A stretch of 64,000 nt of DNA. Source: Thermoproteota archaeon (lineage in GTDB: Archaea > Thermoproteota > EX4484-205 > JAAOZO01). Of this stretch, positions 523 to 54,957 are shown in pieces. The stretch's first letter is position 1; every line of letters begins with the position of its first letter. The DNA is taken from the NCBI GenBank assembly GCA_041479945.1, contig JBGOYZ010000001.1:563-64562 (forward strand), given 5' to 3'. Made by a program: the position numbers and the translations under genes. The notes under the pieces were generated by a model. It searched no databases. It was not told the origin of the DNA and saw only the letters and a list, made by a program, of their open reading frames with translations.

Positions 523-627
523 CGGTTAAGGAAGTTCATCTTGCCGTATTTAAGTCTGCCCGGCACACATGAGAGCAGACATCACAAGTTTGCTAAGATA
601 TGTTTAAAACGCTGGAAAAGACGGACG

Positions 628-3255: not shown

Positions 3256-4068
3256 CTATCCTAAGTAGTCTGGCCCTTCTGTTCCTCTGCCCTGCAGGAG
3301 GGAAGAGAAACGTTGATCCTCCTCAAGCCTGCGTAGCCCCTTCTGGTACTGTTCCTGCAATTCTCTCCACCTGTCAGTCTCGGCCTCGAACTTGGAGAAG
3401 TTCAAGCCCAACTTCAGCAGCGTGTCAACGTTCACGAGGACGTGTTTGGCCGCTTCTAGGTCGGGACCCTCGCTGTTCGTCAGCCCGAGTACGCCTACGC
3501 CTTGCAGTCCAAGCAATCTGCTCAAACCGAGTGCTATTCCGGCTGCACCTACTATGGGAGTTCCAGCGGGGGCCATCGTGAATCCGTCGGTCTTGAGTTG
3601 TGCTGCCATTCGGGCGTCCGATGTGAAGACGTAGGTCCTCAGGTTTTCACGCGGTGGTTCCATGTGGCCGCCGACCGTGATGACCTTGGTTCCGCCAACT
3701 TTCTTGAAGAAAGACAACAACACTCGACACGTTTCATACTCTCCTCCCATCATCTCTTGATGTTGTTCGCCTAGGGCCAAGACCAGATCCCCGTCTGGCC
3801 TGGGCTTCAGATACAAACGCACTGCTGTTAGCCGTGCGATCCCATCCTTTCCAACGACTGCTTGAGAGCTGAAATACGGTGATGTCACGATGCCGATCTG
3901 CTTTGCGGACAATTCCCTGACCAAGAACCGCAAGACAACCTCGCCGATCCTTCCCAACCCCGGATACCCAGATATCAAAGTGGGTCTGGATACAACCCAG
4001 TTCTTCCTAATCCATATCCTTGGGTGTGTGAAATAGTACACGTTGGGATCTATCCCGCCTGAGAACAT
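3256..4068 (-). CDS. PAC2-family (proteasome assembly chaperone-like) protein
   Basis: GYPGLGRIGEVV resembles the PAC2-family G-x-P-G-x-G motif. Size and composition fit archaeal PAC2 proteins. The track start at 4128 is GTG and would overlap the Nop10 start; ATG at 4068 (M21) sits behind a TTAAAT box and is preferred. Confidence 0.5.
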   Translation of the reverse strand: MFSGGIDPNVYYFTHPRIWIRKNWVVSRPTLISGYPGLGRIGEVVLRFLVRELSAKQIGIVTSPYFSSQAVVGKDGIARLTAVRLYLKPRPDGDLVLALGEQHQEMMGGEYETCRVLLSFFKKVGGTKVITVGGHMEPPRENLRTYVFTSDARMAAQLKTDGFTMAPAGTPIVGAAGIALGLSRLLGLQGVGVLGLTNSEGPDLEAAKHVLVNVDTLLKLGLNFSKFEAETDRWRELQEQYQKGLRRLEEDQRFSSLLQGRGTEGPDYLG

Positions 4069-4114
4069 GAAACTCGCAAATCGATTTAAGGAGACATAAT
4101 TAAGGTTGTCCGCC

Positions 4115-4279
4115 ATGAAACGCTGCACTGTTTGTCTGAGTTACACCCTCAACGAGGACAAGTGCCCAAAATGCGGGGGGGTGTTAGGGGACCCTTCGCC
4201 GCCGAAATTCGCACTACAGGATCCTCACTACTCGATCAAGTTGGAGGCCTATCTCAGGAGTCCAAGGCTGCACAGCTAG
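4115..4279 (+). CDS. nop10: H/ACA ribonucleoprotein subunit Nop10
   Basis: 54-aa ORF below the track's length cut-off, translated by hand: [54 protein letters not shown]. The C-x2-C...C-P-x-C-G zinc ribbon plus the P-x-F-x-x-D-P-Y tail are the Nop10 signature. It lies next to aIF2alpha as in the conserved L44e-S27e-aIF2a-Nop10 neighbourhood, but on the opposite strand. Confidence 0.8.
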   Translation: MKRCTVCLSYTLNEDKCPKCGGVLGDPSPPKFALQDPHYSIKLEAYLRSPRLHS

Positions 4280-14276: not shown

Positions 14277-14528
14277 TTGTCATCTCGAGTTACGGATTTT
14301 AGTCCTTTAGAGCACGTTCTTTCACCGAAGTATGAGATACTTGGAGAGGAAGAGAAGAAGGAACTGCTGAAGAAGTACAAAATCAAGCCCTACAACCTGC
14401 CCAGAATCTTGTCCAGCGATCCGGCCGTCAAGGTTCTCGGAGCCAATGTTGGTGACGTGCTGAAGACAACCAAGAAGAGCGAGACGGCAGGAGAGTCAAC
14501 CTACTACAGGCTGGTGGTAATCGAATGA
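14277..14528 (+). CDS. rpoH: DNA-directed RNA polymerase subunit H (Rpb5 homologue)
   Basis: 83 aa: HVLSPKYEILGEEEKKELLKKYKIKPYNLPRILSSDPAVKVLGANVGDVLKTTKKSETAGESTYYRLVV. Overlaps the rpoB start as ATGA. Confidence 0.8.
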   Translation: MSSRVTDFSPLEHVLSPKYEILGEEEKKELLKKYKIKPYNLPRILSSDPAVKVLGANVGDVLKTTKKSETAGESTYYRLVVIE

Positions 14529-17899: not shown

Positions 17900-17906
17900 C
17901 GACAAC

Positions 17907-20900
17907 ATGAGTAGAGAACTAGAAGTAAAGTCGATCGATTCCATAACCTTTGGACTGCTGAGTCCGGCTACCATAAGGAAGATGTCCGTTGTTGAGATAA
18001 CCTCAGAGGAGGTCTACAATGAGGATGGTACTGCTGTGCCTGGAGGCGTGATGGATCTTCGACTTGGAACCATCGAACCCAGCCAACGGTGTCATACCTG
18101 TGGCAACCCCCCGACTCGGTGCCCGGGACACTATGGGCACATTGAGCTTCCAACTCCGATTGTCAATTATCTTTTCGCCAAGGAAATCCACCTCCTTCTG
18201 ACGATCACATGCAGGTCTTGTGGTAGGATACTCCTCCCTGATGAAAAGATCACGGATTATGGACAAGAGATGGCCAGATATCAGAAAGAATTCGGAGCCA
18301 TTCCCAACAAGATCTACTCCCAGATCATCCGGGAGGCAAAACGCATGGCCAGCTGTCCTCATTGTGGCTCCGCTCAATATGTGGTCAAGCCGGTCAAGCC
18401 CGCGGGCTTCTTTGAAGTCACCCCAGAGAAGATCACAACCAAGCTTACCCCAGCTATGGTGAGAGAACGGCTTGATAGGATCCCAGATGATGACCTTGTC
18501 TTGGTGAGGCTCGATCCCGAACTGGGTAGGCCAGAATGGATGGTGTTAGAGGTACTTCCAGTGCCACCAGTGCAGGTTAGGCCCTCGATCATACTTGAAA
18601 CCGGGGAAAGGTCGGAGGATGACCTCACGCACAAGTTGGTTGACATAGTTCGAGCCTCACAGCGCATGAAAGATGCCTTAGAGAGTGGTTCGTCACCCAT
18701 GATCGTCCAAGATTTCGATGAGCTCCTTCAGTATCACGTGACCACGTATCTGGACAACGAGGCCACGGGCGTTCCTCCATCCAGACATAGAACGAACAAG
18801 ATACTGAGGACCCTGTCTCAGAGGTTGAAAGGGAAGGAAGGTAGGTTCAGGAAGAACCTATCGGGGAAGAGGGTGGATTTCTCGGCTAGAACCGTGATAT
18901 CTCCCGACCCGTCGATCGCTGTGGATGAAGTTGGGGTTCCGATAGATGTTGCCATGGAGCTGACTGTCCCAGAGAAGGTCAACCCATTCAACAGAGAGGC
19001 ACTTCTCGCTCTTGTGAAGAACGGGGCATCGAAGTATCCAGGGGTCCGATATGTGATAAGGCCGGACGGCGCTAGGATAAAACTTGAGTTCGTGAAGGAT
19101 CTGGAGGCGTTCGCTGAAAGCGTCGCCGAGGGATTTATCGTCGAAAGACACCTACTTGACGGAGACTACGTTGTTTTCAACCGCCAGCCATCTCTTCACA
19201 GGATCTCGATGATGGGGCACAAGGTACGCGTGCTTCCTGGCAGAACCTTCAGGCTCCACCCCGCTGTCTGTACCCCGTATAACGCTGACTTCGATGGGGA
19301 CGAGATGAACTTACACGTTCCGCAAAGCGTCGAGGCGGTAGCTGAAACCAAGGAACTGCTTCAGGTCATGAAAAACTACATCACGCCCAGATACGGAGCG
19401 CCAATCGTGGGTGCCATAAGAGACTTCGTCACCGGTGCCTATCTGCTGACGCGCTCTGACACGGTTCTCACTAGAAAGGAGTTCTTCATGCTCCTTGAAG
19501 CCGCTGGAGTGGACCGAAACCGCATAGAGTCAGCTATCAAGAAACCGAAAGCGACATGGTCAGGCAAAGAGGCGTTCAGCGCGCTCCTGCCTGCGGATCT
19601 GCACTACAAAACTAGGGCGTCGGTTTGTGCGAACGATCCGAAATGTGACGAGGACAGCTGTCCTCATGAAGGCTTTGTGGTCATAGAAGATGGTGTGTTA
19701 CTGAAGGGAGTAATGGACAAGGCTTCCCTGGGTGCTGAGAAGCCTGCAACCATCATTCACGAAATCCTGTTGAACTACGGTGAAGTAGAGGCCCACAAGT
19801 TCCTGACATCACTCACTCGAATGATATCCACGTTCCTGAAGCTCAGAGGATTCAGTATGACTTACGCTGAACTCATCCTATCTGATCAGGCAAAAGATTG
19901 GATAGAGAGGGATCTCTCATCCGCGGACGACCGCGTGGCCGAGGTCATCTCTCAGTTCAAATCGGGAAAGTTGCAGAAGATACCCGGCCAGTCACAGGAG
20001 GATTCAGTGGAGGCCTACATCATGGACGTGCTCTCTGACATAAGGACCAGAACCGGCGAGTTGGCCAGCAAATCCTTGGGGCTCGACAACAGCGCGGTTG
20101 TGATGACGAGGACCGGTGCTCGGGGTTCCGATCTCAACTTGGGCCAAATGTGTGCGGCACTGGGGCCACAGCAGGTCCGTGGCAAGAGGATCTCAAGGGG
20201 GTATCTCGGGAGACCTCTTCCACACTTCAGGAGAGGAGACATTGGACCTGCTGCTAGGGGATTCATCAAGTCAAGTTACATGACAGGGCTTTCACCGGTT
20301 GAATTCTTCTATCACAGCATGGGAGGGAGAGAGTCATTGGTCGACACAGCTGTAAGGACGCAGCAGAGCGGATACCTCCAAAGGCGTCTGATTCACGCCC
20401 TTGAAACCCTGAAGGTGGAATATGATGGCACCGTGCGGGATCCATACGAGAACATCGTGGAGTTCATCTACGGTGACGATGGTCTGGATCCCGCGAAGAG
20501 CTACCACGGCAAGTTCCCAGTGGAGACGATAATCCGCAAACTCGCCTCATCAATGGACGTCAAGCTCGGTGTCAAGGCTGACAAGGTCGCAATCAGATCG
20601 GCGGTTGCCGCAAGAGTCAAGGACATTCCTCCCCTCATAGCGAAGGAGCTGGAGGGTGCGCTCCTATCACTTGGTGCGGATCCAGCGAGGGCACCGGAGG
20701 TAATCGACGCTACCTTGCGCAGGTATCTTGAGCTCACCGTGGACCCAGGCGAGTCCGTCGGGGTAATAGCGGCCCAGTCAATTGGTGAACCCGGGACGCA
20801 AATGACACTCCGAACCTTCCACTACGCCGGCATAAAGGAGGCCAACGTAACGCTGGGCCTTCCTAGGCTAATAGAGCTCTTGGACGCGAGAAGGATTCCC

Positions 20901-21734
20901 AAGACGCCATTGATGGAAGTTCATCTCTCCCCGGAGTATCGCGAGGATCAAAAGGAGGTTCTCAAAATCGCTAGGAGGATGCCATACACCTCTGTTGAAG
21001 ACATCGCCTCTGAAATCAAGATTCAGCAGTTCAAATCCGTGATAACCATAGGACTCTCAAAAGAAATGATGGTGGAGAGAGGGGTAACTCCGAAGAAGCT
21101 CCAGAGGAGTCTGATCGAAGCCGGCTTTAGACCCAGAAGGGAAAAGAAATTCGAGATCTCAATCACTGTCAAGGATTCTGAGGGAGACCTTACTCCGGTC
21201 GTCGACAAACTGAGAAAGGTTCCAGTCTCCGGCTTGTCGTCTGTTTCTAGGGTCACAGTCCGGGAAAAGGACGGCGAGTGGGTCATATTCACGGAGGGAT
21301 CCAATCTGATGGAAGCCTTGAAGATGCCAGAGGTTGACAAGACCCGGGTATTCACAAACAACATTCACGAGATCGGCGAAGTCCTAGGAATAGAGTCGGC
21401 CAGGACTGCCTTGGTCAAGGAGCTGAAAGACACTCTGGAGGAGCAAGGGCTTGATGTTGATATCAGGCACATAATGTTAGTGGCGTCCGCGATGACTACC
21501 TCCGGAAGGGTCAAACAGATAGGTAGGCACGGTCTCTCAGGAGAAAAAGTGAGTGTGCTGGCTAAGGCCGCGTTCGAGAGGACCATTCCCACACTAGTGG
21601 AGGGTGCCATCACCGGTTCAACAGATCACATGAGAGGAATGACTGAACGTGTCCTTGCAGGCGAGGAGATCAAAGCTGGGACAGGCATGATCGACGTGTA
21701 TGTCGATCTTAGGAAAGGTTTAACTCAACAATAA
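17907..21734 (+). CDS. rpoA: DNA-directed RNA polymerase subunit A, fused A' plus A''
   Basis: 1275-aa continuous ORF. It contains the RpoA' N-terminal zinc motifs, the NADFDGDEMN active-site motif, and the RpoA'' trigger-loop region GESVGVIAAQSIGEPGTQMTLRTFHYAG, all in one frame with no stop or frameshift. Confidence 0.9.
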   Translation: MSRELEVKSIDSITFGLLSPATIRKMSVVEITSEEVYNEDGTAVPGGVMDLRLGTIEPSQRCHTCGNPPTRCPGHYGHIELPTPIVNYLFAKEIHLLLTITCRSCGRILLPDEKITDYGQEMARYQKEFGAIPNKIYSQIIREAKRMASCPHCGSAQYVVKPVKPAGFFEVTPEKITTKLTPAMVRERLDRIPDDDLVLVRLDPELGRPEWMVLEVLPVPPVQVRPSIILETGERSEDDLTHKLVDIVRASQRMKDALESGSSPMIVQDFDELLQYHVTTYLDNEATGVPPSRHRTNKILRTLSQRLKGKEGRFRKNLSGKRVDFSARTVISPDPSIAVDEVGVPIDVAMELTVPEKVNPFNREALLALVKNGASKYPGVRYVIRPDGARIKLEFVKDLEAFAESVAEGFIVERHLLDGDYVVFNRQPSLHRISMMGHKVRVLPGRTFRLHPAVCTPYNADFDGDEMNLHVPQSVEAVAETKELLQVMKNYITPRYGAPIVGAIRDFVTGAYLLTRSDTVLTRKEFFMLLEAAGVDRNRIESAIKKPKATWSGKEAFSALLPADLHYKTRASVCANDPKCDEDSCPHEGFVVIEDGVLLKGVMDKASLGAEKPATIIHEILLNYGEVEAHKFLTSLTRMISTFLKLRGFSMTYAELILSDQAKDWIERDLSSADDRVAEVISQFKSGKLQKIPGQSQEDSVEAYIMDVLSDIRTRTGELASKSLGLDNSAVVMTRTGARGSDLNLGQMCAALGPQQVRGKRISRGYLGRPLPHFRRGDIGPAARGFIKSSYMTGLSPVEFFYHSMGGRESLVDTAVRTQQSGYLQRRLIHALETLKVEYDGTVRDPYENIVEFIYGDDGLDPAKSYHGKFPVETIIRKLASSMDVKLGVKADKVAIRSAVAARVKDIPPLIAKELEGALLSLGADPARAPEVIDATLRRYLELTVDPGESVGVIAAQSIGEPGTQMTLRTFHYAGIKEANVTLGLPRLIELLDARRIPKTPLMEVHLSPEYREDQKEVLKIARRMPYTSVEDIASEIKIQQFKSVITIGLSKEMMVERGVTPKKLQRSLIEAGFRPRREKKFEISITVKDSEGDLTPVVDKLRKVPVSGLSSVSRVTVREKDGEWVIFTEGSNLMEALKMPEVDKTRVFTNNIHEIGEVLGIESARTALVKELKDTLEEQGLDVDIRHIMLVASAMTTSGRVKQIGRHGLSGEKVSVLAKAAFERTIPTLVEGAITGSTDHMRGMTERVLAGEEIKAGTGMIDVYVDLRKGLTQQ

Positions 21735-21754
21735 CACGAGGAGTCGCAAGACTA

Positions 21755-22048
21755 TTGGAATCTGCGATAAGGACCACGTGCAGGACAGGAGAGGTTCTGT
21801 CGGGATACTTCTCGGTCAAGAAGTCGATAATGACGGGCAAGGTCAGTGCAGTCATCTACTCTGCGTCGTTGCCTGCTGAGAAGGCAGAGGAACTGGAGAA
21901 ACTATGCTCGCTCGCTGAAATACCGGTCAGGAAAATGGCCATCTCGCCAGCAGACTTTGGCTCACTGTGCAACAAGCCATTCCCAACGTCCGTTCTGGGC
22001 GTACGTTCCTTCGGCCAATCATCGCTGAAGGAGCTGATGACGAAGTGA
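21755..22048 (+). CDS. rpl30e: Ribosomal protein L30e
   Basis: 97 aa ending GSLCNKPFPTSVLGV. Conserved position after rpoA. Confidence 0.85.
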   Translation: MESAIRTTCRTGEVLSGYFSVKKSIMTGKVSAVIYSASLPAEKAEELEKLCSLAEIPVRKMAISPADFGSLCNKPFPTSVLGVRSFGQSSLKELMTK

Positions 22049-22482
22049 CATCTCCTAAGGTAAGGCTCTCGACAGAAACCTTCAGGTATCTTGCGCTCTT
22101 TGAGCGTATAGCAAGAGTAAGGCCCATTGACTGTGTGGTCTCGCCAGAGGGAGAGATAATCTTCCTAGTGAACCCAGACGAATACCCGCTCGTCACGATG
22201 AACCCGACCAAACCTCTGATACATCTCTCAAGGATGCTGAACACGAGAGTTCTGGCCTATCCTCTTTGCGAGAACACCGAGGAGTTTGTTGCTGGGCTCT
22301 TCAGACAGGTCAGGGTTGATTCGGTCTCACTGGTCAACGTGAAAGATGGCAGGCGAATCGCCAACGTGAAGGTAGCTGAAGTAGACAAGGGCAAAGCGAT
22401 CGGCCAAGGGGGAGCCAATGTGAAAAGAGCCTCTCTGCTGATCAAGAGATACTTCGAAGTTGATCAAGTGAAAATCGTATAA
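22045..22482 (+). CDS. nusA: Transcription termination/antitermination factor NusA (archaeal KH-domain type)
   Basis: KH-domain pattern (KAIGQGGANVKRASLLIKRYF). Probable GTG start at 22045 overlapping the L30e stop as GTGA; the track ORF begins earlier, inside L30e. Confidence 0.75.
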   Translation: MTSPKVRLSTETFRYLALFERIARVRPIDCVVSPEGEIIFLVNPDEYPLVTMNPTKPLIHLSRMLNTRVLAYPLCENTEEFVAGLFRQVRVDSVSLVNVKDGRRIANVKVAEVDKGKAIGQGGANVKRASLLIKRYFEVDQVKIV

Positions 22483-22517
22483 GGTTAATAAGCAGCCGTC
22501 GCAATTCGTAGCGTCTA

Positions 22518-22955
22518 ATGTCAAAAGGCGCAAGAGGGGAATTCGCAGCAAGGACGTTGAAGAAGAGAAGGAATAAATTCAAATGGAGCGACAAATACTA
22601 CACCCGTAGAATCCTCTCTCTGAAGGCCAGATACGATCCCCTCGGAAATGCGCCGATGGCGAGGGGCATAGTGCTCGAAAAGGTTGGGATAGAGAGCAAG
22701 CAGCCAAATAGCGCTGTCAGGAAATGTGTTCGCGTTCAGCTGATCAAGAACAACAAGGAGATAACCGCCTTTGTGCCAGAGGACGGTGGTCTGAACTTCA
22801 TAGATGAGAGAGACGAGGTTCTACTAGCTGGCATAGGTGGCTCAGGGGGAAGATCCATGGGAGATCTACCTGGGGTCAGGTACAAGGTCGTGGCCGTGAA
22901 CGACATCTCATTGGAAGCGATGCTCAAGGGCAAGAAGCAAAAGATCAGGAAGTAG
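22518..22955 (+). CDS. rps12: Ribosomal protein S12 (uS12)
   Basis: [31 protein letters not shown]...: classic S12. Confidence 0.9.
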
Positions 22956-23122
22956 AGGGCTCAATCAGCCAGCAGAACTAGGGAACAATCCGAACAGCAA
23001 ATCCGAACTCAAGCATAGTCCGTCTGGTTCCGAAGAACGGAAACGATAGGTATTATAACCCCCTATGTCCATCGCCTTCCATGAATGAGCGCTGTGCGCT
23101 CTCGCGAAGGAGATGAGAAGCA

Positions 23123-23701
23123 ATGTCAGTCGAACCTGAACCCATAAAGCTGTTTGGGAAGTACGCCTTCGATGATCTAAAGGTAACCGACAGAACCCTC
23201 GAGACCGCTATCTCTTTCAAACCGATATTCCTGCCTCATTCGGCCGGCAGGCACGAGCACAAGAGATTCGCTAAGAATTCGATCAACGTGGTTGAACGAC
23301 TCGCGAACCTGATATCTCTGACGCAGAAGGCGGGAGGAAAGAAGGCCCAAGCGATCAAGATAATGGAGGCCGCTTTGGACTCTGTCAGTTCCAAGAAGAA
23401 AGAGAATCCTCTCAGAGTCCTGTTGACGGCAATAGAGAACAGCGCTCCCAGAGAGGACACAACTAGGGTCAGCTACGGAGGCATCCTGTACTATCAAGCG
23501 GTGGACATCTCTCCGACCAGAAGAGTGGATCTAGCCCTTAGGAATCTCGTCAAGGGCGCTAGGAGGGATTCCTTCAAATCAACAACTCCTTTCCACGAGG
23601 CTATGGCGAATCAGATAGCACGGGCGGCCGATAAGGATCCAAAATGTTTCGCCATCGCACGGAAAGATGAACTAGAGAAGCATGCCTTGGCTTCTAGGTA
23701 A
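23123..23701 (+). CDS. rps7: Ribosomal protein S7 (uS7)
   Basis: 192 aa with S7 family motifs (INVVERLANLI, SYGGILYYQAVD). Confidence 0.9.
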   Translation: MSVEPEPIKLFGKYAFDDLKVTDRTLETAISFKPIFLPHSAGRHEHKRFAKNSINVVERLANLISLTQKAGGKKAQAIKIMEAALDSVSSKKKENPLRVLLTAIENSAPREDTTRVSYGGILYYQAVDISPTRRVDLALRNLVKGARRDSFKSTTPFHEAMANQIARAADKDPKCFAIARKDELEKHALASR

Positions 23702-23765
23702 GCCCTTCAGATAACCTTTATAATGGCACGGCCCAAACTGAAGGTCGTCTAAAGGTGAATTCGTA

Positions 23766-25079
23766 ATGAGTAGTGCTAGTTCGAAACCGCACCTGAATCT
23801 AGTCGTGGCTGGGCACGTGGATCACGGAAAGAGTACAACGACTGGTCACCTGCTATATCTCAAGGGATACGTCGACGCAAGGAAACTGGATGAACTTGCG
23901 AAGGAGTCTGCGAGGACTGGTCTTGGTGAGAGCTTCAAGTACGCTTGGGTTCTCGACACTGTCAAGGAAGAGCGAGAAAGAGGTGTCACAATAGACGCTG
24001 CCTACGTGAAGTTCATCACAGACAAGTACTACTTCACTGTCATTGATGCTCCGGGACACAGAGACTTTGTCAAGAACATGATAACTGGGGCAAGTCAAGC
24101 GGACGGCGCCCTTCTGGTCGTCTCTGCAAAGAAAGGGGAATTCGAGACCGGGATTAGTCCAGAGGGCCAGACGAGAGAACACGCCTTCCTGCTCTTCACG
24201 TTGGGCGTCCGCCAAATTGTTGTGGCTGTCAACAAGATGGATGATCAGACTGTCAACTGGAGCAAGGATAGGTTTGAGGAGGTAAAGAAGGCCATACTTG
24301 ACCTGATGGTTCCGATGGGCTTTGACCTGAAGAAACACAAGATCTTCGTCGTTCCAATCAGCGGGTGGCTCGGCGACAACCTAGTGACAAAATCAGAGCA
24401 CATGCCATGGTACGACGGCCCGACTCTGGTCGGGGTACTAGACCAATTCGAACCCCCTGCGAAGCCAACTGACAAGCCATTGAGGCTTCCGATCCAACAG
24501 GTGTTCAACATTCCAGGTGTGGGAACGGTGCCGGTCGGTCGTGTGGAGACAGGAGTGCTGAAGGTCAACGACAAGATTGTTGTGAATCCGTCTGGTAAAC
24601 ACGGCGAAGTTCGAAGCATTGAGATGCATCACGAGAGGATGGAGAAAGCCGAGCCTGGAGACAATGTGGGTCTGAACATCAAGGGCATATCACAGAAAGA
24701 AATGAAGAGAGGAGATGTCGTCGGAACCGAGGCCAACCCTCCGTCCATTGCAAAGGAATTCATCGGCCGGATCATAGTCATTCGCCATCCGACAGCGATC
24801 GCTGTTGGCTACACCCCAGTCCTTCACATTCATACGGAGCAGGTTGCATGTGAGTTCGCAGAGTTGGTCAAGAAGATCGACGCTAGAACCGGTGCGGCTG
24901 TAGAAGATAAGCCCGCCTTCCTAAAGACTGGAGATGCAGCTATCGTCAGGTTCAGGCCACTCAGGCCAATATCGCTTGAGACTTTCTCCGACTTCCCACC
25001 CTTGGGAAGATTCGCCATAAGAGACATGGGTCTAACCGTAGCGGCTGGCGTGACGATGGAGATCACTCAGAAGGGATAG
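23766..25079 (+). CDS. tuf: Elongation factor 1-alpha
   Basis: GHVDHGKST G1 motif, DAPGHRDF, NKMD. 437 aa. Confidence 0.95.
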   Translation: MSSASSKPHLNLVVAGHVDHGKSTTTGHLLYLKGYVDARKLDELAKESARTGLGESFKYAWVLDTVKEERERGVTIDAAYVKFITDKYYFTVIDAPGHRDFVKNMITGASQADGALLVVSAKKGEFETGISPEGQTREHAFLLFTLGVRQIVVAVNKMDDQTVNWSKDRFEEVKKAILDLMVPMGFDLKKHKIFVVPISGWLGDNLVTKSEHMPWYDGPTLVGVLDQFEPPAKPTDKPLRLPIQQVFNIPGVGTVPVGRVETGVLKVNDKIVVNPSGKHGEVRSIEMHHERMEKAEPGDNVGLNIKGISQKEMKRGDVVGTEANPPSIAKEFIGRIIVIRHPTAIAVGYTPVLHIHTEQVACEFAELVKKIDARTGAAVEDKPAFLKTGDAAIVRFRPLRPISLETFSDFPPLGRFAIRDMGLTVAAGVTMEITQKG

Positions 25080-25166
25080 GCGGATCTTTTCAGAGCGACG
25101 GAACAAAAATAGGTCGGTGCTTACAGTTAGGCAGTTCTTCGTCGGAGCTACGCTGGGGTTGGCCAC

Positions 25167-25766
25167 CTACACGGGGAAGAACTCTTCCCAGGCCTTCTCT
25201 TTCGATATGAACAACATGTCTATTCCATTTCCCGATGCCGAGTCTCTCTCAAGGGCCGATCTGACCGTCTTCAAGACTTGTCCTTTGGCCTCGTCGTAGC
25301 TCATGTCGTCCTTGTACGTGGCTTCAAGGATGCCGAGAGCAAGCTCACTTCCGCTACCCACAGCAGCGTACTTGTCCTCGATGATCGATCCCAATGCGTC
25401 CATGACTATGACGCTCTTCTCCCCTCTGTCAAATCCGCCGATTATCAGCTGGGTGAAGAGTGGGGCTAGCCTGTTGGAGAAGAGTATATTGGATATGAGC
25501 TTAGCCAGCGCTCTGGCATTCATCTCCCTGTTGGTCTGCAGTCTGAACATGTTCGCGCCGTATTTCGCCTCCCTCAAAATCGTCTGGATGTCTGATATCA
25601 CCCCGGCCGACGACAATCCGATGGTATTCGTGATCTTGAACACTTTCCTTGCGTTCTTGCTCAGTATGAAGGTTCCATATGAAGCCCTTCTGTCCGCGGC
25701 GAGGACGACGCCATCGCCGTAGATCATCCCTAGGGCGGTGGCTCCGGGAATGAAAGAGGAAGACAT
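25167..25766 (-). CDS. Proteasome beta-type subunit paralogue with Thr1 replaced by Ala (probably non-catalytic)
   Basis: Aligns to archaeal beta subunits over its whole length, conserving G5, D17, R19 and K33. The position of the catalytic Thr1 reads ...PG-ATALG instead of G-TTTVG. Confidence 0.8.
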   Translation of the reverse strand: MSSSFIPGATALGMIYGDGVVLAADRRASYGTFILSKNARKVFKITNTIGLSSAGVISDIQTILREAKYGANMFRLQTNREMNARALAKLISNILFSNRLAPLFTQLIIGGFDRGEKSVIVMDALGSIIEDKYAAVGSGSELALGILEATYKDDMSYDEAKGQVLKTVRSALERDSASGNGIDMLFISKEKAWEEFFPV

Positions 25767-25801
25767 GATCGTTTTATCGCGAACTGCGGATTTAAATGAT
25801 T

Positions 25802-26872
25802 CTATGTCTTTGGAGCCACCACTAGCTCTGGCGGGAACCCAGAGTTGTTGACTTGGATGTCAGCAGCGCCGAACATCCTTGCCACATGAACCTCCGTAAG
25901 GAGATGCTCGGATACGCTCGGCATAGTTATCTTGGACTGTCCCTCTGCCTTCAGCATATAGGGGAGTATCATGTCGGCGAAATGTTCGTCAACGGCGCCC
26001 CCGGCATTGACGCAACTGCTGAAGGCGGTTGCTGCTTCAGAGCCAACGATCTCCGCTGCCTTTCCTCTTTCTCCTATGGAGTCTGCTCCAATGAAACTGA
26101 GTGACTTGGAACTAGCCCACAAGGTTACGCTACTTCCGGGGGAGATGGAATTGTCCAGACATACAGTGTCCAACTCTGCTATTGAGATGCCGGCGCTGCT
26201 CAATAGAGCCCTGGCGCTCATCGCTTGTCTTTCTGCCACAGACACAGGAAGGTGTGCACATCTGCTTATGCCATGGCATTTCAGGTCATTCTTTGGGGAG
26301 GCATCCGCTATGAGCGGCACTAGTCGAGCACGAGGCTTGACCTCGAACCTGACGATTCCCCCTCCCTTGGGGTAGTAACCGCTTCTGATCAGTTTGACGG
26401 AAACGTCCACGCCCATAGCACGCAGACCATTGAGGAAGACTTGATCGAAGTAGTCTACGGTAGGGCTCCATTTGACTTCGGTTCCACCAACTATTCTTCC
26501 GCTAACTGGTCGCTCGGCCATCAAAGCGACTGGGAGGATGGCTTGAAGGACAAGCGTCACACTACCTGCTGTCCCAACGTTGAACTCGAACTCCCCTCCT
26601 GTCACCTTTCCCGGTCTGAAGGAGATCGATGAAGACCCGATCTCGTTTCCGGTCAACTTAGCGTTCGCCAATATGCCTACCGCTTTAATGGCCGCGAGGT
26701 GCTGTGGCCTTATTCCTGGGGGGGTTCTGTTGGCCCTTATGTTGACTATGGTCACTTCCTCACCCAGCAAAGTGGACAGGCCCATCGAGAACCTCAGAAG
26801 TTGTCCTCCTCCCTCCCCATAGGACCCGTCTATCTCCATCGGGTCGCGAGCCTTGTCAGCATTTTTAAACAA
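25802..26872 (-). CDS. rtcA: RNA 3'-terminal phosphate cyclase RtcA
   Basis: GSYGEGGGQLLR N-terminal motif and overall 356-aa cyclase architecture. Confidence 0.8.
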   Translation of the reverse strand: MFKNADKARDPMEIDGSYGEGGGQLLRFSMGLSTLLGEEVTIVNIRANRTPPGIRPQHLAAIKAVGILANAKLTGNEIGSSSISFRPGKVTGGEFEFNVGTAGSVTLVLQAILPVALMAERPVSGRIVGGTEVKWSPTVDYFDQVFLNGLRAMGVDVSVKLIRSGYYPKGGGIVRFEVKPRARLVPLIADASPKNDLKCHGISRCAHLPVSVAERQAMSARALLSSAGISIAELDTVCLDNSISPGSSVTLWASSKSLSFIGADSIGERGKAAEIVGSEAATAFSSCVNAGGAVDEHFADMILPYMLKAEGQSKITMPSVSEHLLTEVHVARMFGAADIQVNNSGFPPELVVAPKT

Positions 26873-26891
26873 ACGAGTTGTCCCAAAGGCG

Positions 26892-27434
26892 ATGAGTAAG
26901 GATAGCTGGGCGCTCTTCGTGGGCAGGTTTCAGCCCTTCCATAAGGGCCACTTGCACGCGATCCATCTAATACTGGAGAGAGAACCGAAAGTCGTCATAG
27001 CAGTAGGAAGTTCGTTGTCCAGCCATGAAGAACGGAACCCGTTCACCATGGGAGAACGAGTTCAGATGATATTGGCTGCTCTTGCCGAGAATAACGTCGA
27101 AAGAGGCAGATACCTGATAACAGGAGTTCCAGACACCGAGTTCCACCCTTCTTGGGTTACATATGTCCTCAAGAGCGTACCTCCCATCAATCGGGTGTAC
27201 ACAAACGATCCGCTGACGACTACATTATTCGAAGAGGAGGGGTATGAAGTAGTCGCCATCCCCCTTCAAGATAGGAGTGCATACTCTGGCACGGAGATAA
27301 GGCGCAGGATAGTGAACCGTGAGGATTGGTCGGACCTGGTCCCAAGAGCAGTCCATGACGTCATCAGGGGCTTCCACGGAGATGTCAGGATCAGGAGAAT
27401 CTCTGGCAGCGATTCCGACAAGACCCAACAGTAG
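26892..27434 (+). CDS. nadM: Nicotinamide-nucleotide adenylyltransferase (archaeal NMNAT)
   Basis: GRFQPFHKGH (H/T-x-G-H nucleotidyltransferase motif) and ISGTEIRRR. The track start at 26853 is probably too far upstream. Confidence 0.85.
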   Translation: MSKDSWALFVGRFQPFHKGHLHAIHLILEREPKVVIAVGSSLSSHEERNPFTMGERVQMILAALAENNVERGRYLITGVPDTEFHPSWVTYVLKSVPPINRVYTNDPLTTTLFEEEGYEVVAIPLQDRSAYSGTEIRRRIVNREDWSDLVPRAVHDVIRGFHGDVRIRRISGSDSDKTQQ

Positions 27435-27505
27435 ACTTCAAGTCCGCCGTCGTAGAGTCGGGGAGCAGATACTGCTTGGGTTCTGCATCCTAGCAGTCAC
27501 CCGTC

Positions 27506-28366
27506 GTGCTCATGGACGAGAATTACGCTTATAACGAGCGCTCTAGCGGTCGTATTTACATGAACGAAGAAGGTTCTTTCCTCCTTGTGGACCTTACAGC
27601 CAAAGTTCAGGAGACAGGCGAGATAATAGATACCACAAATGAGAGTGTCGCCAAAGAAGCCAAGATCTTCAATGAAAGCGAAGCTTACGTTCCGAGGCTA
27701 CTGATAGTAGGCTCTGACGACGCTCCAAAACCCCTGATGGAGACGCTGAAGAAGGCTGAAGTAGGTGCTGAGCAGCAGGTCGTAGTTTCGCCAGAACAGG
27801 GATACGGGTTGAGAGATCCCTCCAAGGTGCGGGTTCTGCCACTCAGGAAGTTTGCGAACGTCAAGGATCTGGACGTGGACTCTAGGGTGGAGGTCGATGG
27901 GAGAATCGGTACAGTCAAGTCAATAACCTCCGGGCGCGTCTCCGTGGACTTCAACCCACCGTTGGCTGGAAGGACCATCATGTATGATGCGAAGGTGGTG
28001 TCCGTCGTTGAAGAGGAGCCGGATCAGATCCGCGAACTGATAAGTCGAAGGTTCCCGAAGGTCGACAAGAAGGGGTTTGATATCAAGACTGAGGGGTCAA
28101 CGGTCGAGATCAAGTTACCTGAGGAGGTATTCTATGTGGAAGGCCTTCAAGTCATCAAGAGGGCTCTCTTCGCGGAGATAACAAAGCATCTGAAGAACGT
28201 CATGACCGTCTTGTTCTCGGAAGTGTATTCAAAGAAGCAGGAGGAGAAAAGAGAGGAGGAGAAGAAAGAAGAACGCAAAGAAGAGAAAGCAGAGGTCGAG
28301 CCCCCCGCTAAGAAGCCTGCTCGCAAGGAGAAGTCAAAGAAGAAGGCAGGAACTAAGGGGGAGTAA
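27506..28366 (+). CDS. FKBP-type peptidyl-prolyl cis-trans isomerase with a K/E-rich C-terminal tail
   Basis: FKBP fold signature (VVVSPEQGYGLRDP) and an inserted flap domain. The C-terminal 50 aa are highly charged (EEKREEEKKEERKEEKAEVE...). Confidence 0.75.
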   Translation: MLMDENYAYNERSSGRIYMNEEGSFLLVDLTAKVQETGEIIDTTNESVAKEAKIFNESEAYVPRLLIVGSDDAPKPLMETLKKAEVGAEQQVVVSPEQGYGLRDPSKVRVLPLRKFANVKDLDVDSRVEVDGRIGTVKSITSGRVSVDFNPPLAGRTIMYDAKVVSVVEEEPDQIRELISRRFPKVDKKGFDIKTEGSTVEIKLPEEVFYVEGLQVIKRALFAEITKHLKNVMTVLFSEVYSKKQEEKREEEKKEERKEEKAEVEPPAKKPARKEKSKKKAGTKGE

Positions 28367-28745
28367 TCCTAGCAACAGAGAGTGTCTTAGTCGAATCCAT
28401 CGCGCACGGAAACGTTCTCTCGACATGCACTATCTTGATTCTGTCTCCATCGGCCAGTGAGAACGGATCGCAGAGCTCTCTGTAGAGACATGTCCAAGTT
28501 CCACAGGAGACCCTCTTGAACTTGAATGCTGCCCCCTCCTTGGCCAATCGCGCATCCAAGGCGATGGATGTGTCTGGTTTCCTTATCTGGACGCTCTCTA
28601 CGTTTCCTTCCCTCAACTTGCAGTAGCTCCTCGTTCCCTTTCTCCCAACTATTTGGAAGGAAGCGCCCACACACATGGAACCATGGCACACCGTACGTCG
28701 TTCACAGTCGGCGCATTCCTCGGATCCACCGAAATACGTCCACAC
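28353..28745 (-). CDS. Hypothetical cysteine-rich protein
   Basis: 130 aa with 10 Cys (CADCERRTVCHGSMC...SCGTWTC...C). Fills the gap between FKBP and G1PDH. No recognisable family. Confidence 0.25.
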   Translation of the reverse strand: MWTYFGGSEECADCERRTVCHGSMCVGASFQIVGRKGTRSYCKLREGNVESVQIRKPDTSIALDARLAKEGAAFKFKRVSCGTWTCLYRELCDPFSLADGDRIKIVHVERTFPCAMDSTKTLSVARITPP

Positions 28746-28815
28746 AGACCCCTCTTTGATCGCGTCAGGATCGAGTAGGGTGAGTGCCTCTATCCTACTG
28801 CTTTTTGCCGGCGTC

Positions 28816-29871
28816 TCAGATCACCCGGGTTGCTCTTGCCAGATCGACCGCCGCTTTTTCACTCAGTCCTTTCTCGCCCAGTATGGTATATCTGTCTGGT
28901 CTAATGCTTGCCGCTCTTACTAGGGCCTCTACAATAACCTCATCGCTCACGCCAAGTTCCTTGGCCGACGTAGGGGCTTTGGCCTCTGCAAGGCTGTTCC
29001 TCACCTTCTCCCAGTCCGCGTCATGTAGGTAAGACATCATAATGGTCCCGATCCCCACCTGTTGACCGTGGAAAGAGGAGGTATGTCTTATCTGATCCAA
29101 CGCATGTGAGAAGAGATGTTCAGACCCACTGCAAGGCCTACTGGTTCCGGCGATACTGATGAGTATACCACAATTGATAAGCGCCTCCACTAGCGCACGT
29201 ACCCCCTCCGCACTTCCCTCCCCCACCTCTTCGGCCCTCTTCATCATTATCTCCGCACACTCCAAGGCTAGGTCCGCCGTGTATTCGCCATAGTACTCTC
29301 CCAGCAAGAGATGAGCCAACCTCCAATCCTTCACCGCGGTGTACTTGCCTATCACGTCACCAAAGCCACTGGCGATGTATTGATGCGGGGCGGTCACCAG
29401 TACAGATATGTCGGCGAATACTGCCTGGGGCGTCTTGGCGAACCTAGAAGACCTGATGTCACCACTGAGTATTGACACGAGTGGACTCGCTATGCCGTCA
29501 TGAGATGGGATCGTAGGCACGGAGAAGAACTCCGTACCCGATTTCTCTGCGATCAGCTTGGAGATGTCCAAAACCCTCCCACCGCCGACTCCAACCAATC
29601 CATCTATTCCCGTCCCGATGGTTTCGAGGAACTCGTCCCTGACGCTTTCGTGAGGTTTACCATCATCTAGGAAGAACCTGTATTCTATGCCCGAGGTCTC
29701 CAGCGAGCGTTCCAACTTGCCACCAAGAAGTCTGAAGGGAGTCTTGCTGGTGAGCACTCCAACTCTCTCTACTCCCAGTGCCGATAGCTCCTTCCCAATA
29801 CCTTCGATAATACCCCCTCCAGCCATTATCAGCCTGGGAAGCTCAATCTTGTGCGGACTCCCATTGGGCAT
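28816..29871 (-). CDS. egsA: Glycerol-1-phosphate dehydrogenase [NAD(P)+]
   Basis: 351 aa. N-terminal Rossmann LIMAGGGIIEGIGKE plus overall similarity to the AraM/EgsA family. Confidence 0.85.
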   Translation of the reverse strand: MPNGSPHKIELPRLIMAGGGIIEGIGKELSALGVERVGVLTSKTPFRLLGGKLERSLETSGIEYRFFLDDGKPHESVRDEFLETIGTGIDGLVGVGGGRVLDISKLIAEKSGTEFFSVPTIPSHDGIASPLVSILSGDIRSSRFAKTPQAVFADISVLVTAPHQYIASGFGDVIGKYTAVKDWRLAHLLLGEYYGEYTADLALECAEIMMKRAEEVGEGSAEGVRALVEALINCGILISIAGTSRPCSGSEHLFSHALDQIRHTSSFHGQQVGIGTIMMSYLHDADWEKVRNSLAEAKAPTSAKELGVSDEVIVEALVRAASIRPDRYTILGEKGLSEKAAVDLARATRVI

Positions 29872-29910
29872 TGTTCCCCCTTGGGCACAAGAAAAGAAAA
29901 ACTTATCTTG

Positions 29911-30642
29911 ATGGGCTCAGCCCTCTGTCACACTTCATCAGGTGCTTATGCCAAATTGAACAGCTACTTTGGGCCAATTGGGTCACCTCTGGGATCAGGT
30001 CTCTTGAAGGTGCCTGAGGTGAAGTGGGGAACCACTACAATTGGTGTAGCCTGCAAGGATGGGATCGTGTTCGCCACCGATACCCGTGTAGTGCAGGGGG
30101 AAACGTTCATCGCGCACAAGACTGGAAAGAAAGTGCACAAAGTCGAAGATCACGCAGCAATGACTATGGCCGGAGGTGTAGCCGATGCCCAAGCCCTGCT
30201 GGACGTTCTTAGGTACCAAGCTAGGATCTTCTGGCTCGAAAGGGGTACTAAGATTCCCATCAAGTCGCTTTCGAACATCGCGTCCTTGGTACTCTTCGGA
30301 AATAGGTTGGCCCCAATGGCGGTTCAGGCACTGATAGGTGGCCTAGACCATGACGGCCCGAGTCTGTATCAGATCGACCCGTTTGGCGGAGTCACGAGAG
30401 AGACCCTCATTTCGACCGGCTCCGGGTCGCCCGTTGCCCTTGGTTTCCTAGAGGCAAACATACATAAGGACATGTCTTCCAAAGATGTCGTACCGCTGGC
30501 GGTCAAGGCGGTCCTGACAGCCATGAACAGGGACACAGCGACCGGCAATGATTTCGATGTGGTCGTGATCGATTCTGCGGGCTACAGAGAACTCTCGCCG
30601 GACGAAAAAGGGATCATTGCCAAGAGGATAGTGGCGGTATAG
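29911..30642 (+). CDS. psmB: Proteasome beta subunit (catalytic, Thr1 intact)
   Basis: Propeptide followed by G-TTTIGVACKDGIVFATDTRV, with D17 and K33 conserved. The track start at 29851 overlaps egsA; ATG at 29911 is more likely. Confidence 0.85.
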   Translation: MGSALCHTSSGAYAKLNSYFGPIGSPLGSGLLKVPEVKWGTTTIGVACKDGIVFATDTRVVQGETFIAHKTGKKVHKVEDHAAMTMAGGVADAQALLDVLRYQARIFWLERGTKIPIKSLSNIASLVLFGNRLAPMAVQALIGGLDHDGPSLYQIDPFGGVTRETLISTGSGSPVALGFLEANIHKDMSSKDVVPLAVKAVLTAMNRDTATGNDFDVVVIDSAGYRELSPDEKGIIAKRIVAV

Positions 30643-30672
30643 TGCTCAGGTCAGAGCACGGCAAACATTACG

Positions 30673-32571
30673 ATGATTGAACTAGTGAGGAAGGAGGTTC
30701 TTGAAAGGGCACCAGCAGAGGCCTCTCTGACAGGCATAGAGATAGAAGGCCCTCAGATTGTGTTGCTGACCAAGAACCCGGAGTTCATGTTGTCAGGGCA
30801 GCAATACGCCTCCGAGCTGGCCAAAGTACTGAGAAAGAGAGTTGTGATAAGGACCGCACCTCAATACTTGCTCGATGAGGAGACGGCATCCGGAGCCATC
30901 TCTTCCATACTACCAAAGGAGGCAGGCCTCCAGAGGGTCATCTTCAACCACAGCACTGGCGAGGCCATCTCGATAGCGAACAACATTGCGTTGCTGGAGG
31001 CTGACATCAACAATCTCACTCAGAAAGTAGCCAAGGAAACCGGCTGGAGGCTGGTTGTTGAGAAGAAATTCCTGTCGGACTCCAAAACCTTCTCGCAGGT
31101 ACTGCATGTCCTAACGTCCAGGTCCGAATCCAAGAGTTCATTCCTTAGGGAAACTGGGGACAGGATCTTCAGGACTCCATTGGGTTCTACCAGCAGTTGC
31201 ACGCTGTCGTTCCTGGGAGGGGTCGAACAGGTGGGGCGTTCGGCCTTGCTTGTGTCCACAGACGAGAGCAAAGTGTTAGTGGACGCAGGGGTGAACCCTG
31301 GAACCTCGCAGAGAGGGTCATTGTTCCCTAGATTTGACTATGAGTTCGATGGTTTCGAATCGCTGGATGCGGTAGTCGTGTCACATGCACACCTAGACCA
31401 CATAGGAGCACTGCCGTTGCTGACGAAGTATGGTTATCAGGGTCCCTTCTACATGACGGAGCCAACTCTCTATCTGCTGACAATCTTGTTGGAAGACTTC
31501 TACAACGTAGAGACGAGGTCGGGCTCCCTTTCGTTTTTCTCGCTGAAGGACGTCAAGTCAGTCATCGAGCAGACGATTGTGGTTAAGTACAACCAAGTAA
31601 CCGATGTTTCTCCCGACATAAAGATAACACCTTACAACGCCGGTCATATACTTGGCTCCTCCCTGATCGACTTGACAATAGGCGACGCAGGCTACTCTGT
31701 GCTGTACACAAGTGACTTCAAACTTGGGAGGTCATTGCTACTCAACCCTGCCGTTTCCAGATTCCTCAGGGTGGACACACTGATAATGGAATCCACCTAC
31801 GGAGGAGAAGGGGACGTAATGCCGAGCCGAACAGAAGTGGAGAACAGATTGATCTCTCTGGTGAACGAGACCTTCCAAAGGGGAGGAAGGGTCTTGATCC
31901 CCACATTGGCAGTTGGCAGAGCCCAAGAGGTCCTGCTGATCTTGGATCGGGCGATGACCAACAAGAATATCGAGGAGGCCCCGGTGTTTGTGGACGGGAT
32001 GATAACAGAGGTCTCCAAGGTTCACTCGGCTTTTCCGAGTTATCTCTCATCTGAGCTCTATTCGCTCATAACTGAGGAAGGGGTGAACCCACTGGAGTCG
32101 GAATACTTCGTGCCAATCAAGAGCAGTTCGGAGAGATCAGAGGCCCTGTCTGCGGGTAAGGCGATAGTACTTTCCACATCCGGCATGTTAGAAGGCGGCC
32201 CGGTGTTGGAGTACTTCAGACACGTGGCCCCAGAACCGAAGGATTCGGTTCTGTTCGTCAACTATCAAATTGAGGGGACGCTGGGCCAAAGGGTGCTGTC
32301 GGGCGCAAAACAGGTGCAACTTTACGATGGGGAAGGCAAGCTGGCAGTCATAGATATCAAGAGCCAAATCCATCGACTGGACGGCTTGTCTGGGCACTCA
32401 GACAGGTCACAGCTCCTGACGTTTGCAAGGAATGTCATCACTGGGCGAGGTTCAATCTTCTTGGTTCATGGCGAGAGGAGTAAGCTGCGCAGTCTACACA
32501 GGACTGTCTCCCACATGTTTCCTCACAGGGCTACGGTGCCAAAGCTAGGAGAAAGGTACCGGGTGTTTTGA
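30673..32571 (+). CDS. aCPSF1 / FttA (KH domains plus metallo-beta-lactamase/beta-CASP ribonuclease)
   Basis: 632 aa. HAHLDHIGALP metallo-beta-lactamase motif, N-terminal KH domains, and the conserved position downstream of psmB. Confidence 0.9.
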   Translation: MIELVRKEVLERAPAEASLTGIEIEGPQIVLLTKNPEFMLSGQQYASELAKVLRKRVVIRTAPQYLLDEETASGAISSILPKEAGLQRVIFNHSTGEAISIANNIALLEADINNLTQKVAKETGWRLVVEKKFLSDSKTFSQVLHVLTSRSESKSSFLRETGDRIFRTPLGSTSSCTLSFLGGVEQVGRSALLVSTDESKVLVDAGVNPGTSQRGSLFPRFDYEFDGFESLDAVVVSHAHLDHIGALPLLTKYGYQGPFYMTEPTLYLLTILLEDFYNVETRSGSLSFFSLKDVKSVIEQTIVVKYNQVTDVSPDIKITPYNAGHILGSSLIDLTIGDAGYSVLYTSDFKLGRSLLLNPAVSRFLRVDTLIMESTYGGEGDVMPSRTEVENRLISLVNETFQRGGRVLIPTLAVGRAQEVLLILDRAMTNKNIEEAPVFVDGMITEVSKVHSAFPSYLSSELYSLITEEGVNPLESEYFVPIKSSSERSEALSAGKAIVLSTSGMLEGGPVLEYFRHVAPEPKDSVLFVNYQIEGTLGQRVLSGAKQVQLYDGEGKLAVIDIKSQIHRLDGLSGHSDRSQLLTFARNVITGRGSIFLVHGERSKLRSLHRTVSHMFPHRATVPKLGERYRVF

Positions 32572-35542: not shown

Positions 35543-35656
35543 GGGCCCGTAGCTCAGCATGGAAGAGCAGCAGATGTCGGGCTAGCTGATGCTCTTAACC
35601 TGATGGTCACGGGAATGGAATCCCGCCAGAAATGGGTTCAAATCCCATCGGGCCCG
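35543..35656 (+). tRNA. tRNA with multiple non-canonical introns, probably tRNA-Lys(CUU)
   Basis: GGGCCCG-TA-GCTCAGCATGGAAGAGC...CTCTTAA...CCCGC-CAGAA-ATGGG-TTCAAAT-CCCAT-CGGGCCC-G. The acceptor, D-arm and T-arm are canonical. A CTCTTAA Lys(CUU)-type anticodon loop is visible, but about 40 extra nt sit in and around the anticodon arm. The first insert (AGATGTCGG...) resembles intron 1 of tRNA-Lys(UUU) at 14117-14132. Confidence 0.65.
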
Positions 35657-53492: not shown

Positions 53493-54236
53493 TTGTTGCC
53501 TGGGATGGGCTATGATAGAGGAATTACCGTCTTCTCCCCTGATGGGCGTCTTTGGCAAGTGGACTACGCCATGATCATGGTGAACAACAGCCCCACGGCG
53601 TTGGGTGCCAGCTCCAGCAATGGTGTTGTCTTAGCCGGCATAGAGAAGAAGACCGACGCTCTGCAGGATAGGAGCTTCAGCCACAAGCTGTTCATCATTG
53701 ATGAGCACGTGGCGGCGACTGTCACCGGATTCACCTCTGACGCTAGGATCCTAATCGACATAGCTCGCCAGGAATCACAGACGAACAGGCTGCTCTACGA
53801 CGAGCCAATAGACATGAACTACCTTGCCAGAAGGCTCGGAGACATAATGCAGAACTACACACAGAATGCTGGGGTTCGTCCCTTTGGAGTTTCACTGATC
53901 ATCGGTGGTGTTGACCTGTTGGGTCCTTCGGTGCATCAACTGGATCCGAGCGGAATCTACAACAAGTACTTCCTCACTGCATCGGGAGTGAACAGAAACG
54001 AAGCCTTAGAGGCCACCAAGGCTATCTACAACAAGTCGGCGTCGCTGGATGTCCTCAAAGAGCTGGTGATGATAGGAATGATCGCGAGCAACAAGGCAGA
54101 AGCTTTGTCTGAAGTAGTCAGGATGACGTACATAGATGCTGGGGAGAAGAAGGTCACTCTTGCCAAGGACGAGGAAATCTCTGAGATATTCGAGAGAGCC
54201 TCCAAGAAACAGCCGCCCAAGGTTTCAGAGAAGTAG
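53493..54236 (+). CDS. psmA: Proteasome alpha subunit
   Basis: GYDRGITVFSPDGRLWQVDYA N-terminal alpha-subunit signature. Confidence 0.9.
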   Translation: MLPGMGYDRGITVFSPDGRLWQVDYAMIMVNNSPTALGASSSNGVVLAGIEKKTDALQDRSFSHKLFIIDEHVAATVTGFTSDARILIDIARQESQTNRLLYDEPIDMNYLARRLGDIMQNYTQNAGVRPFGVSLIIGGVDLLGPSVHQLDPSGIYNKYFLTASGVNRNEALEATKAIYNKSASLDVLKELVMIGMIASNKAEALSEVVRMTYIDAGEKKVTLAKDEEISEIFERASKKQPPKVSEK

Positions 54237-54245
54237 GTAGTCCAG

Positions 54246-54932: not shown

Positions 54933-54957
54933 TCGGTTTGCGAGGTAAGGAAACAGA

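Follow-up and report, generated by a model that had tools for sequence, protein, structure and literature searches.

The closest described relative of the locus reported here belongs to the 20S proteasome of Sulfolobus acidocaldarius, from which a two-beta system with an inactive structural subunit is already known. In reconstitution experiments, the alpha subunit and full-length Saci_0662 formed an unstable complex, and alpha with the truncated Saci_0662deltaN formed a stable 28-subunit particle with "no catalytic activity" (Anjum et al. 2015, PMC4569737). The second beta subunit, Saci_0909, did not assemble with alpha. Co-expression of all three proteins yielded one mixed particle; its beta ring contained Saci_0909 "at a lower ratio," and it was Saci_0909 that "conferred catalytic activity" (PMC4569737). 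PDB entry 6Z46 represents the S. acidocaldarius Saci0613/Saci0662 20S proteasome. The alpha/Saci_0662deltaN particle has also been described as "catalytically inactive," with the bortezomib-binding Thr1 placed on Saci_0909 (bioRxiv 10.1101/774273), and a 2025 preprint reports that the two Sulfolobales beta types form hetero-heptameric rings. In the accessible Sulfolobus papers, the inactivity of Saci_0662 is not attributed to an alanine.

Other well-described systems differ in the use of Thr1. The single beta subunits of T. acidophilum, A. fulgidus, and M. jannaschii have the same fold as the subunit described below and are 35 to 39% identical to it. Unlike that subunit, they carry G-TTT and are self-processing, and all members of their homomeric rings are active. 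When Thr1 of yeast beta1, beta2, or beta5 is replaced by Ala (engineered T1A mutants), neither autolysis nor activity is seen (Huber et al. 2016, PMC4792962). The propeptide remnants of these mutants occupy the substrate-binding channel and turn tightly at Gly(-1) (PMC4792962).

The stretch of DNA analyzed here (64,000 nucleotides; "the window") resembles S. acidocaldarius in gene content. A beta gene with Ala at the nucleophile position (beta1) co-occurs in the window with one alpha gene and one canonical Thr1 beta gene (beta2). A PAC2 homologue is present in both organisms: it lies close to the beta1-type gene in S. acidocaldarius and in the same window here. The features are as follows.

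25167..25766, minus strand: Ala1 proteasome beta gene (beta1; PsmB1 or Saci_0662 type), 199 amino acids, stop codon included in the coordinates; identified from the open reading frame, Pfam, PDB matches, and an AF2 model
25743..25766, minus strand: N-terminal extension MSSSFIPG, positions -8 to -1, ending in Pro(-2)-Gly(-1)
25740..25742, minus strand: codon GCC, Ala at the Thr1 nucleophile position (precursor residue 9), read from the sequence
25790..25797, minus strand: TATA-box-like ATTTAAAT, approximately 25 to 31 nt upstream of the beta1 ATG, read from the sequence
29911..30642, plus strand: canonical Thr1 proteasome beta gene (beta2; PsmB2 or Saci_0909 type), ...KWG-TTTIG, with the Thr1 codon at 30031-30033; start codon uncertain
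53493..54236, plus strand: proteasome alpha gene, Pfam PF00227 and PF10584 (Proteasome_A_N)
3256..4128, minus strand: PAC2-family protein, a proteasome assembly chaperone homologue (Pfam PF09754, 1.1e-25)

Searching the window by tblastn with both beta sequences revealed the alpha gene as the only other gene with a proteasome fold. The start of beta2 is ambiguous: the longest open reading frame begins at GTG 29851 (263 amino acids), the original prediction, which had been made from the DNA letters, used ATG 29911 (243 amino acids), and automated calls on identical contigs vary between 207, 212, and 243 amino acids. Since the start may lie anywhere in 29851-30030, the propeptide could range from approximately 4 to approximately 60 residues. 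Homologues of beta2 span only the last 80 to 85% of the 243-amino-acid form.

The beta1 product is a proteasome beta-type subunit with the Ntn-hydrolase fold. Pfam PF00227 spans the protein (2e-48, residues 8 to 186), and the alpha-type N-terminal signature PF10584 is absent. The AF2 model (mean pLDDT, 87.6) superimposes on solved beta subunits with TM-scores of 0.85 to 0.92. The open reading frame uses the earliest in-frame start codon that follows a stop, and the protein begins MSSSFIPG-ATALGMIYGDGVVLAADRRASYGTFILSKNARKVFKI. Upstream, the TATA-box-like ATTTAAAT, which was read from the sequence, would suggest a leaderless or near-leaderless beta1 transcript and would favor the ATG at 25766 as the start.

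The register of the active site was established from three alignments. HMMER placed beta1 "gatalgmiygdgvvlaadrr" opposite A. fulgidus beta "GTTTVGLVCKDGVVMATEKR," and MAFFT placed beta1 G-ATALG opposite the KWG-TTTIG of the window's own beta2, with Saci_0662 also aligned. All three comparisons (with A. fulgidus beta by HMMER, and with beta2 and Saci_0662 by MAFFT) were free of gaps before approximately residue 110. In this ungapped register, Ala9 of the beta1 precursor occupies position 1 and is followed by Thr2, Gly5, Asp10, Asp17, Arg18-Arg19, and Lys33. Read directly, the codons around position 1 are CCC (Pro), GGA (Gly), GCC (Ala), and ACC (Thr). The protein also retains Gly47, Ser129, Asp166, Ser169, and Gly170, such that the catalytic constellation besides the nucleophile (Asp/Glu17, Lys33, Gly47, Ser129, Asp166, and Ser169) is complete. 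What beta1 lacks is the Thr1 nucleophile of a catalytically competent archaeal beta subunit. The original prediction had proposed this replacement of Thr1 by Ala, the retention of G5, D10, D17, R18-R19, and K33, and a canonical G-TTTIG in the second beta gene, and all of these were borne out. The three gap-free alignments excluded any shift of register that places the Thr of beta1 at the true position 1.

We then asked which of the two Sulfolobus subunits beta1 corresponds to. Its best PDB match was 6z46_H (Saci_0662; 1.4e-51, approximately 46% identity across the complete mature domain), the next archaeal beta scoring 3.7e-40, and 6Z46 was also the best fold match of the AF2 model. For the window's beta2, 6z46_H ranked only seventh among PDB matches (1.8e-30). 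Together with joint placement in one clade of a neighbor-joining tree calculated without support values (see below), the PDB ranking and the fold identify beta1 as orthologous to Saci_0662 rather than to the Thr1 paralogue. The two proteins share Ala1 followed by Thr, Asp or Glu at position 17, Arg19, Lys33, a GSG motif, and Asp166/Ser169. Their extensions differ: MSSSFIPG with Gly(-1) here, and MEELP with Pro(-1) and no Gly in Sulfolobus. The hosts also differ, in that the present lineage is related to Nitrososphaerota and known from sequence, whereas the Sulfolobus particle has been tested by experiment.

The "pro-peptide" removed in the Saci_0662 construct was MEELPA, after which the chain continues TAIGIK; the native N-terminus is thus MEELPA-TAIG (PMC4569737), and Saci_0662 therefore has Ala at position 1. 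The Thr taken as "equivalent" to T1 in that work reads as Thr2 in our aligned register. This offers a sequence-level reason for the unexplained inactivity of the alpha plus Saci_0662 particle, in that the construct's "T1" is Thr2 and position 1 is Ala. That study's treatment of the corresponding Thr as T1 (the "equivalent threonine"; PMC4569737) is nevertheless one argument for a different reading, namely that beta1 is active, being cut after Ala9 so that the invariant Thr2 becomes the N-terminal nucleophile. The invariance of Thr2, the retention of all remaining catalytic residues, an equally invariant P-G-A that could serve as a processing site, and the NCBI name of several family members ("archaeal proteasome endopeptidase complex subunit beta") point the same way. 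We nevertheless consider an active beta1 very improbable. Thr2 as the nucleophile would move Asp17 and Lys33 one residue off, and the alignment to active beta subunits is gap-free. True Thr1 subunits (TTT) have an equally invariant Thr2, and conservation of this residue can thus be explained without catalysis. Moreover, Saci_0662deltaN starts exactly at the corresponding Thr and was inactive, whereas Saci_0909deltaN, built to the same design, conferred activity (PMC4569737). For Sulfolobus, the Thr2-nucleophile reading is largely refuted.

A second concern, raised with the original prediction, was that the codon had been miscalled. A single transition separates Ala GCC from Thr ACC, so that the observed codon could in principle stem from an error in sequencing or assembly, or from a recent A-to-G mutation (ACC to GCC) inactivating a nascent pseudogene. 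The probability of either is vanishingly small. Gene calls on at least 23 contigs, drawn from separate, independent assemblies (JGI, ENA, and Logan), gave the identical 199-amino-acid protein, and its neighboring genes were the same in every case. Nor is the residue peculiar to this genome: every relative examined, down to approximately 45% identity, has Ala at this position and none has Thr. G-A-T was found in 119 of 119 full-length matches among the 120 closest beta1 homologues, in all 80 species-representative genome loci (44 to 67% identity to beta1), and in 118 further homologues retrieved with an Asgard query. The closest species genomes, Nitrososphaerota metagenome-assembled genomes, encode proteins only 67% identical to beta1. 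Across 86 related loci, the Ala codon itself varied synonymously (GCC, 42; GCA, 27; GCG, 9; GCT, 8). Since Ala is kept in all relatives examined and is written with four synonymous codons, it is held by selection at the protein level. Overall conservation of the beta1-type family is also strong, with a mean column identity of 62% (42 sequences), which likewise argues against a pseudogene. Sequencing error and pseudogene were rejected on the identical contigs and the variation of the Ala codon. Ala1 is the normal state of an ancient archaeal paralogue family and no one-off event in this genome.

Conservation in this family extends to both sides of position 1. Pro(-2), Gly(-1), Ala1, and Thr2 did not vary among the 55 distinct beta1-type N-termini compared, where they follow Ile or Val at -3 and an aromatic residue at -4; the 88 beta2-type N-termini were invariant only from Gly(-1) onward. 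The P-G-A-T motif is not universal, because the Sulfolobus subunit lacks the Gly (LP-A-T). Within the 42 beta1-type sequences (down to 48% identity), Lys33, Gly47, Asp166, Ser169, and Gly170 were invariant, and Ser129 was nearly so. Two points appear to be new in the accessible literature: that Ala, and not the next Thr, occupies position 1, and that P(-2)G(-1)A1T2 is invariant. We found no published statement of Ala at position 1 of the crenarchaeal beta1; the final Science paper on Sulfolobus cell division might contain one. The Ala1 paralogue is absent from the discussion in the survey of proteasome homologues by Fuchs et al. (2021). What the present analysis adds to the known Sulfolobus case (the statement of the Ala1 register, the breadth of the family, and the P-G-A-T motif) is modest.

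A search of cluster representatives (50% identity) gave Ala at position 1 in the clusters closest to beta1 (a few had Gly or Ser) and the canonical T-T-T in those farther away. In a neighbor-joining tree of 149 sequences, calculated without support values, beta subunits lacking Thr1 formed essentially one clade that included the window's beta1 and Saci_0662. In the same tree, again without support values, the window's beta2 fell in a Thr1 clade with homologues from Bathyarchaeia, Brockarchaeota, Thermofilum, Nitrososphaeria, and Hecatellaceae. There were a few exceptions to the pattern (P0163, P0157, P0139, and P0208): a few Thr1 sequences (P0163 and P0157) lay within or beside the non-Thr1 clade, and two Gly1 sequences lay outside it. 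Named members of the Ala1 clade came from Nitrososphaera, Nitrosocosmicus, Bathyarchaeia, Methanomethylicota, Fervidicoccaceae, Sulfolobus, and Atabeyarchaeia (Asgard; IPLG-ATT). Both beta paralogues were found across Thermoproteota. A lineage with only the Ala1 type would force activity on that subunit; such a lineage was sought in Bathyarchaeia among named sequences, and named Bathyarchaeia Thr1 beta subunits exist. The two-beta arrangement reaches beyond Sulfolobales to Nitrososphaeria (including ammonia oxidizers), Bathyarchaeia, Methanomethylicota, Fervidicoccaceae, and at least one Asgard lineage.

The Asgard representative, from Candidatus Atabeyarchaeum deiterrae (CP147780.1; locus L063, 7923-8591, plus strand), is an Ala1-type beta with IPLG-ATTLG and is 51% identical to the window's beta1. 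It belongs to a tight clade of approximately 16 related sequences, all with PLG-AT. The next-nearest relatives of this clade are Bathyarchaeia-like, at approximately 61% identity, and horizontal transfer is therefore possible. Some beta-like clusters had Gly or Ser at position 1 (P0139, P0134, P0140, P0149, P0171, P0169, P0235, and P0253). Among these, the Gly1 sequence P0139 is named Baldrarchaeia (Asgard) and lies outside the Ala1 clade, and the Ser-type group (P0169, P0235, and P0253) also lacks Asp17, with Lys33 lost as well in two of the three. Judging from the Gly1 and Ser1 clusters, Thr1 may have been lost more than once.

Taking these comparisons together, we consider it highly probable that beta1 builds rings without taking part in catalysis, in a 20S proteasome encoded by three genes (one each for alpha, the Ala1 beta, and the Thr1 beta). 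Having Ala instead of Thr1, beta1 would neither remove its own N-terminal extension nor hydrolyze substrates, and it would keep the full beta fold and the contacts for assembly with alpha. The beta2 protein would join the same heptameric rings, probably as a minority, and supply the active sites; the ratio of beta2 to beta1 would then set the number of active sites per particle. We infer Sulfolobus-like behavior of these subunits in this organism (inactivity, mixed rings, and stoichiometry) by analogy. The original prediction had cast beta1 as a catalytically dead structural or regulatory beta subunit and had expected a heteromeric ring with the active paralogue. The former is supported by the inactive alpha plus Saci_0662deltaN 20S particle of the closest solved relative, and the latter by the Sulfolobus reconstitution in which Saci_0909 joins the Saci_0662 ring.

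The fate of the Pro(-2)-Gly(-1)-Ala1 stub may take one of two forms. It may fold into the dead substrate channel, as in T1A mutants, or be trimmed in trans by beta2. Compared with the engineered T1A beta subunits of yeast and Thermoplasma, beta1 carries the same single nucleophile change with the rest of the site intact. However, the mutants are laboratory changes in active subunits with long propeptides, whereas Ala1 of beta1 is natural, ancient, and selected, and follows an 8-residue extension. Full-length Saci_0662 gave an unstable particle and only the truncated form a stable one, so N-terminal processing may be needed in vivo; trimming of the stub by beta2 would possibly fit that instability.

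One observation sits uneasily with a non-catalytic, ring-building beta1. The other catalytic residues and Thr2 are as strictly conserved in beta1-type subunits as in active ones, and such conservation appears to exceed the obvious need of a purely structural role. It could instead reflect particles built with beta1 only, serving as an inactive reservoir, a decoy, or an unfoldase or chaperone platform, or else a non-hydrolytic pseudo-site that, for example, holds substrate segments. In line with this, alpha and Saci_0662deltaN alone suffice for a complete stable 28-mer where alpha and Saci_0909 do not (PMC4569737), and the catalytic constellation minus its nucleophile is strictly conserved along with P-G-A-T. 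However, co-expression of the three subunits gave a single mixed particle, and the beta2-type Saci_0909 cannot assemble with alpha unless the beta1 type is present, so mixed rings are the only demonstrated route to activity (PMC4569737). We therefore regard beta1-only particles or a pseudo-site of this kind as quite improbable. A broader reading, which we offer as speculative and rather unlikely as a whole, would combine several of these elements: the Ala1 site may be a pseudo-active site under selection, its stub either plugging the channel of its own subunit or licensing assembly once trimmed by beta2, and the archaeal split into active and inactive beta subunits would predate eukaryotes and may be ancestral to beta3-like subunits. 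The pseudo-active site enters this reading because neither P-G-A-T nor the catalytic constellation varies across a span that takes in Nitrososphaeria, Bathyarchaeia, and an Asgard lineage.

Eukaryotic beta3, beta4, beta6, and beta7 resemble the archaeal beta1 in having a beta fold without Thr1, and they too share a ring with active subunits. Eukaryotic rings have seven fixed, distinct positions, whereas here there would be two beta types in a variable ratio, by analogy with Sulfolobus. Beta3 chains were among the better eukaryotic PDB matches of the window's beta1 (approximately 1e-20) and were missing from the 60 best PDB matches of beta2, which were mostly beta5. This ranking of PDB matches may be a weak hint of a link between beta1 and the eukaryotic non-catalytic beta subunits.

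The non-catalytic, ring-building role of beta1 bears on annotation, as one of the two "proteasome beta" genes here very probably cannot encode a protease, and in the particle, beta1 is best viewed as structural and beta2 as catalytic, alongside a single alpha. Both beta proteins score below the curated cut-off of 224 for TIGR03634, the model for the endopeptidase complex subunit beta (beta1, 217.4; beta2, 201.1), and for this reason close relatives are named merely "proteasome subunit beta." Because the Thr1-bearing beta2 is also below the cut-off, the TIGR03634 score cannot alone decide competence. Bathyarchaeia Ala1-type proteins pass the cut-off and are named "endopeptidase complex subunit beta" although they lack the nucleophile. 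Many Ala1 proteins are currently named as an endopeptidase subunit by annotation pipelines.

The two beta genes lie 4 kb apart in the window. Of the nearest genomes, the two whose flanking sequence suffices (loci L001 and L004) retain this linkage (approximately 5 kb); the Bathyarchaeia loci do not. Both genes are enclosed in a conserved information-processing block (14525-32571) that comprises RpoB, RpoA, an L7Ae-family protein, NusA, S12, S7, EF-1alpha, and beta1, followed by RtcA, an NMN adenylyltransferase-like protein, FKBP26, UPF0179, a glycerol-1-phosphate dehydrogenase-like protein, beta2, and aCPSF1. Farther along, Rfam matched a tRNA at 35543-35656 on the plus strand (41.4 bits, full model). 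Its span of 114 nt is too long for an uninterrupted tRNA, and an intron is therefore probable; against this match, ARAGORN reported no tRNA anywhere in the window. The PAC2-family gene adjoins genes for the AglB/STT3 oligosaccharyltransferase (541-3243) and aIF2-alpha (4276-5034). The alpha gene is the first of a classical archaeal "exosome superoperon" (53493-57208, plus strand), in which it is followed by SBDS/Sdo1 (54246-54932), Rrp4 (54958-55650), Rrp41 (55647-56393), and Rrp42 (56390-57208).
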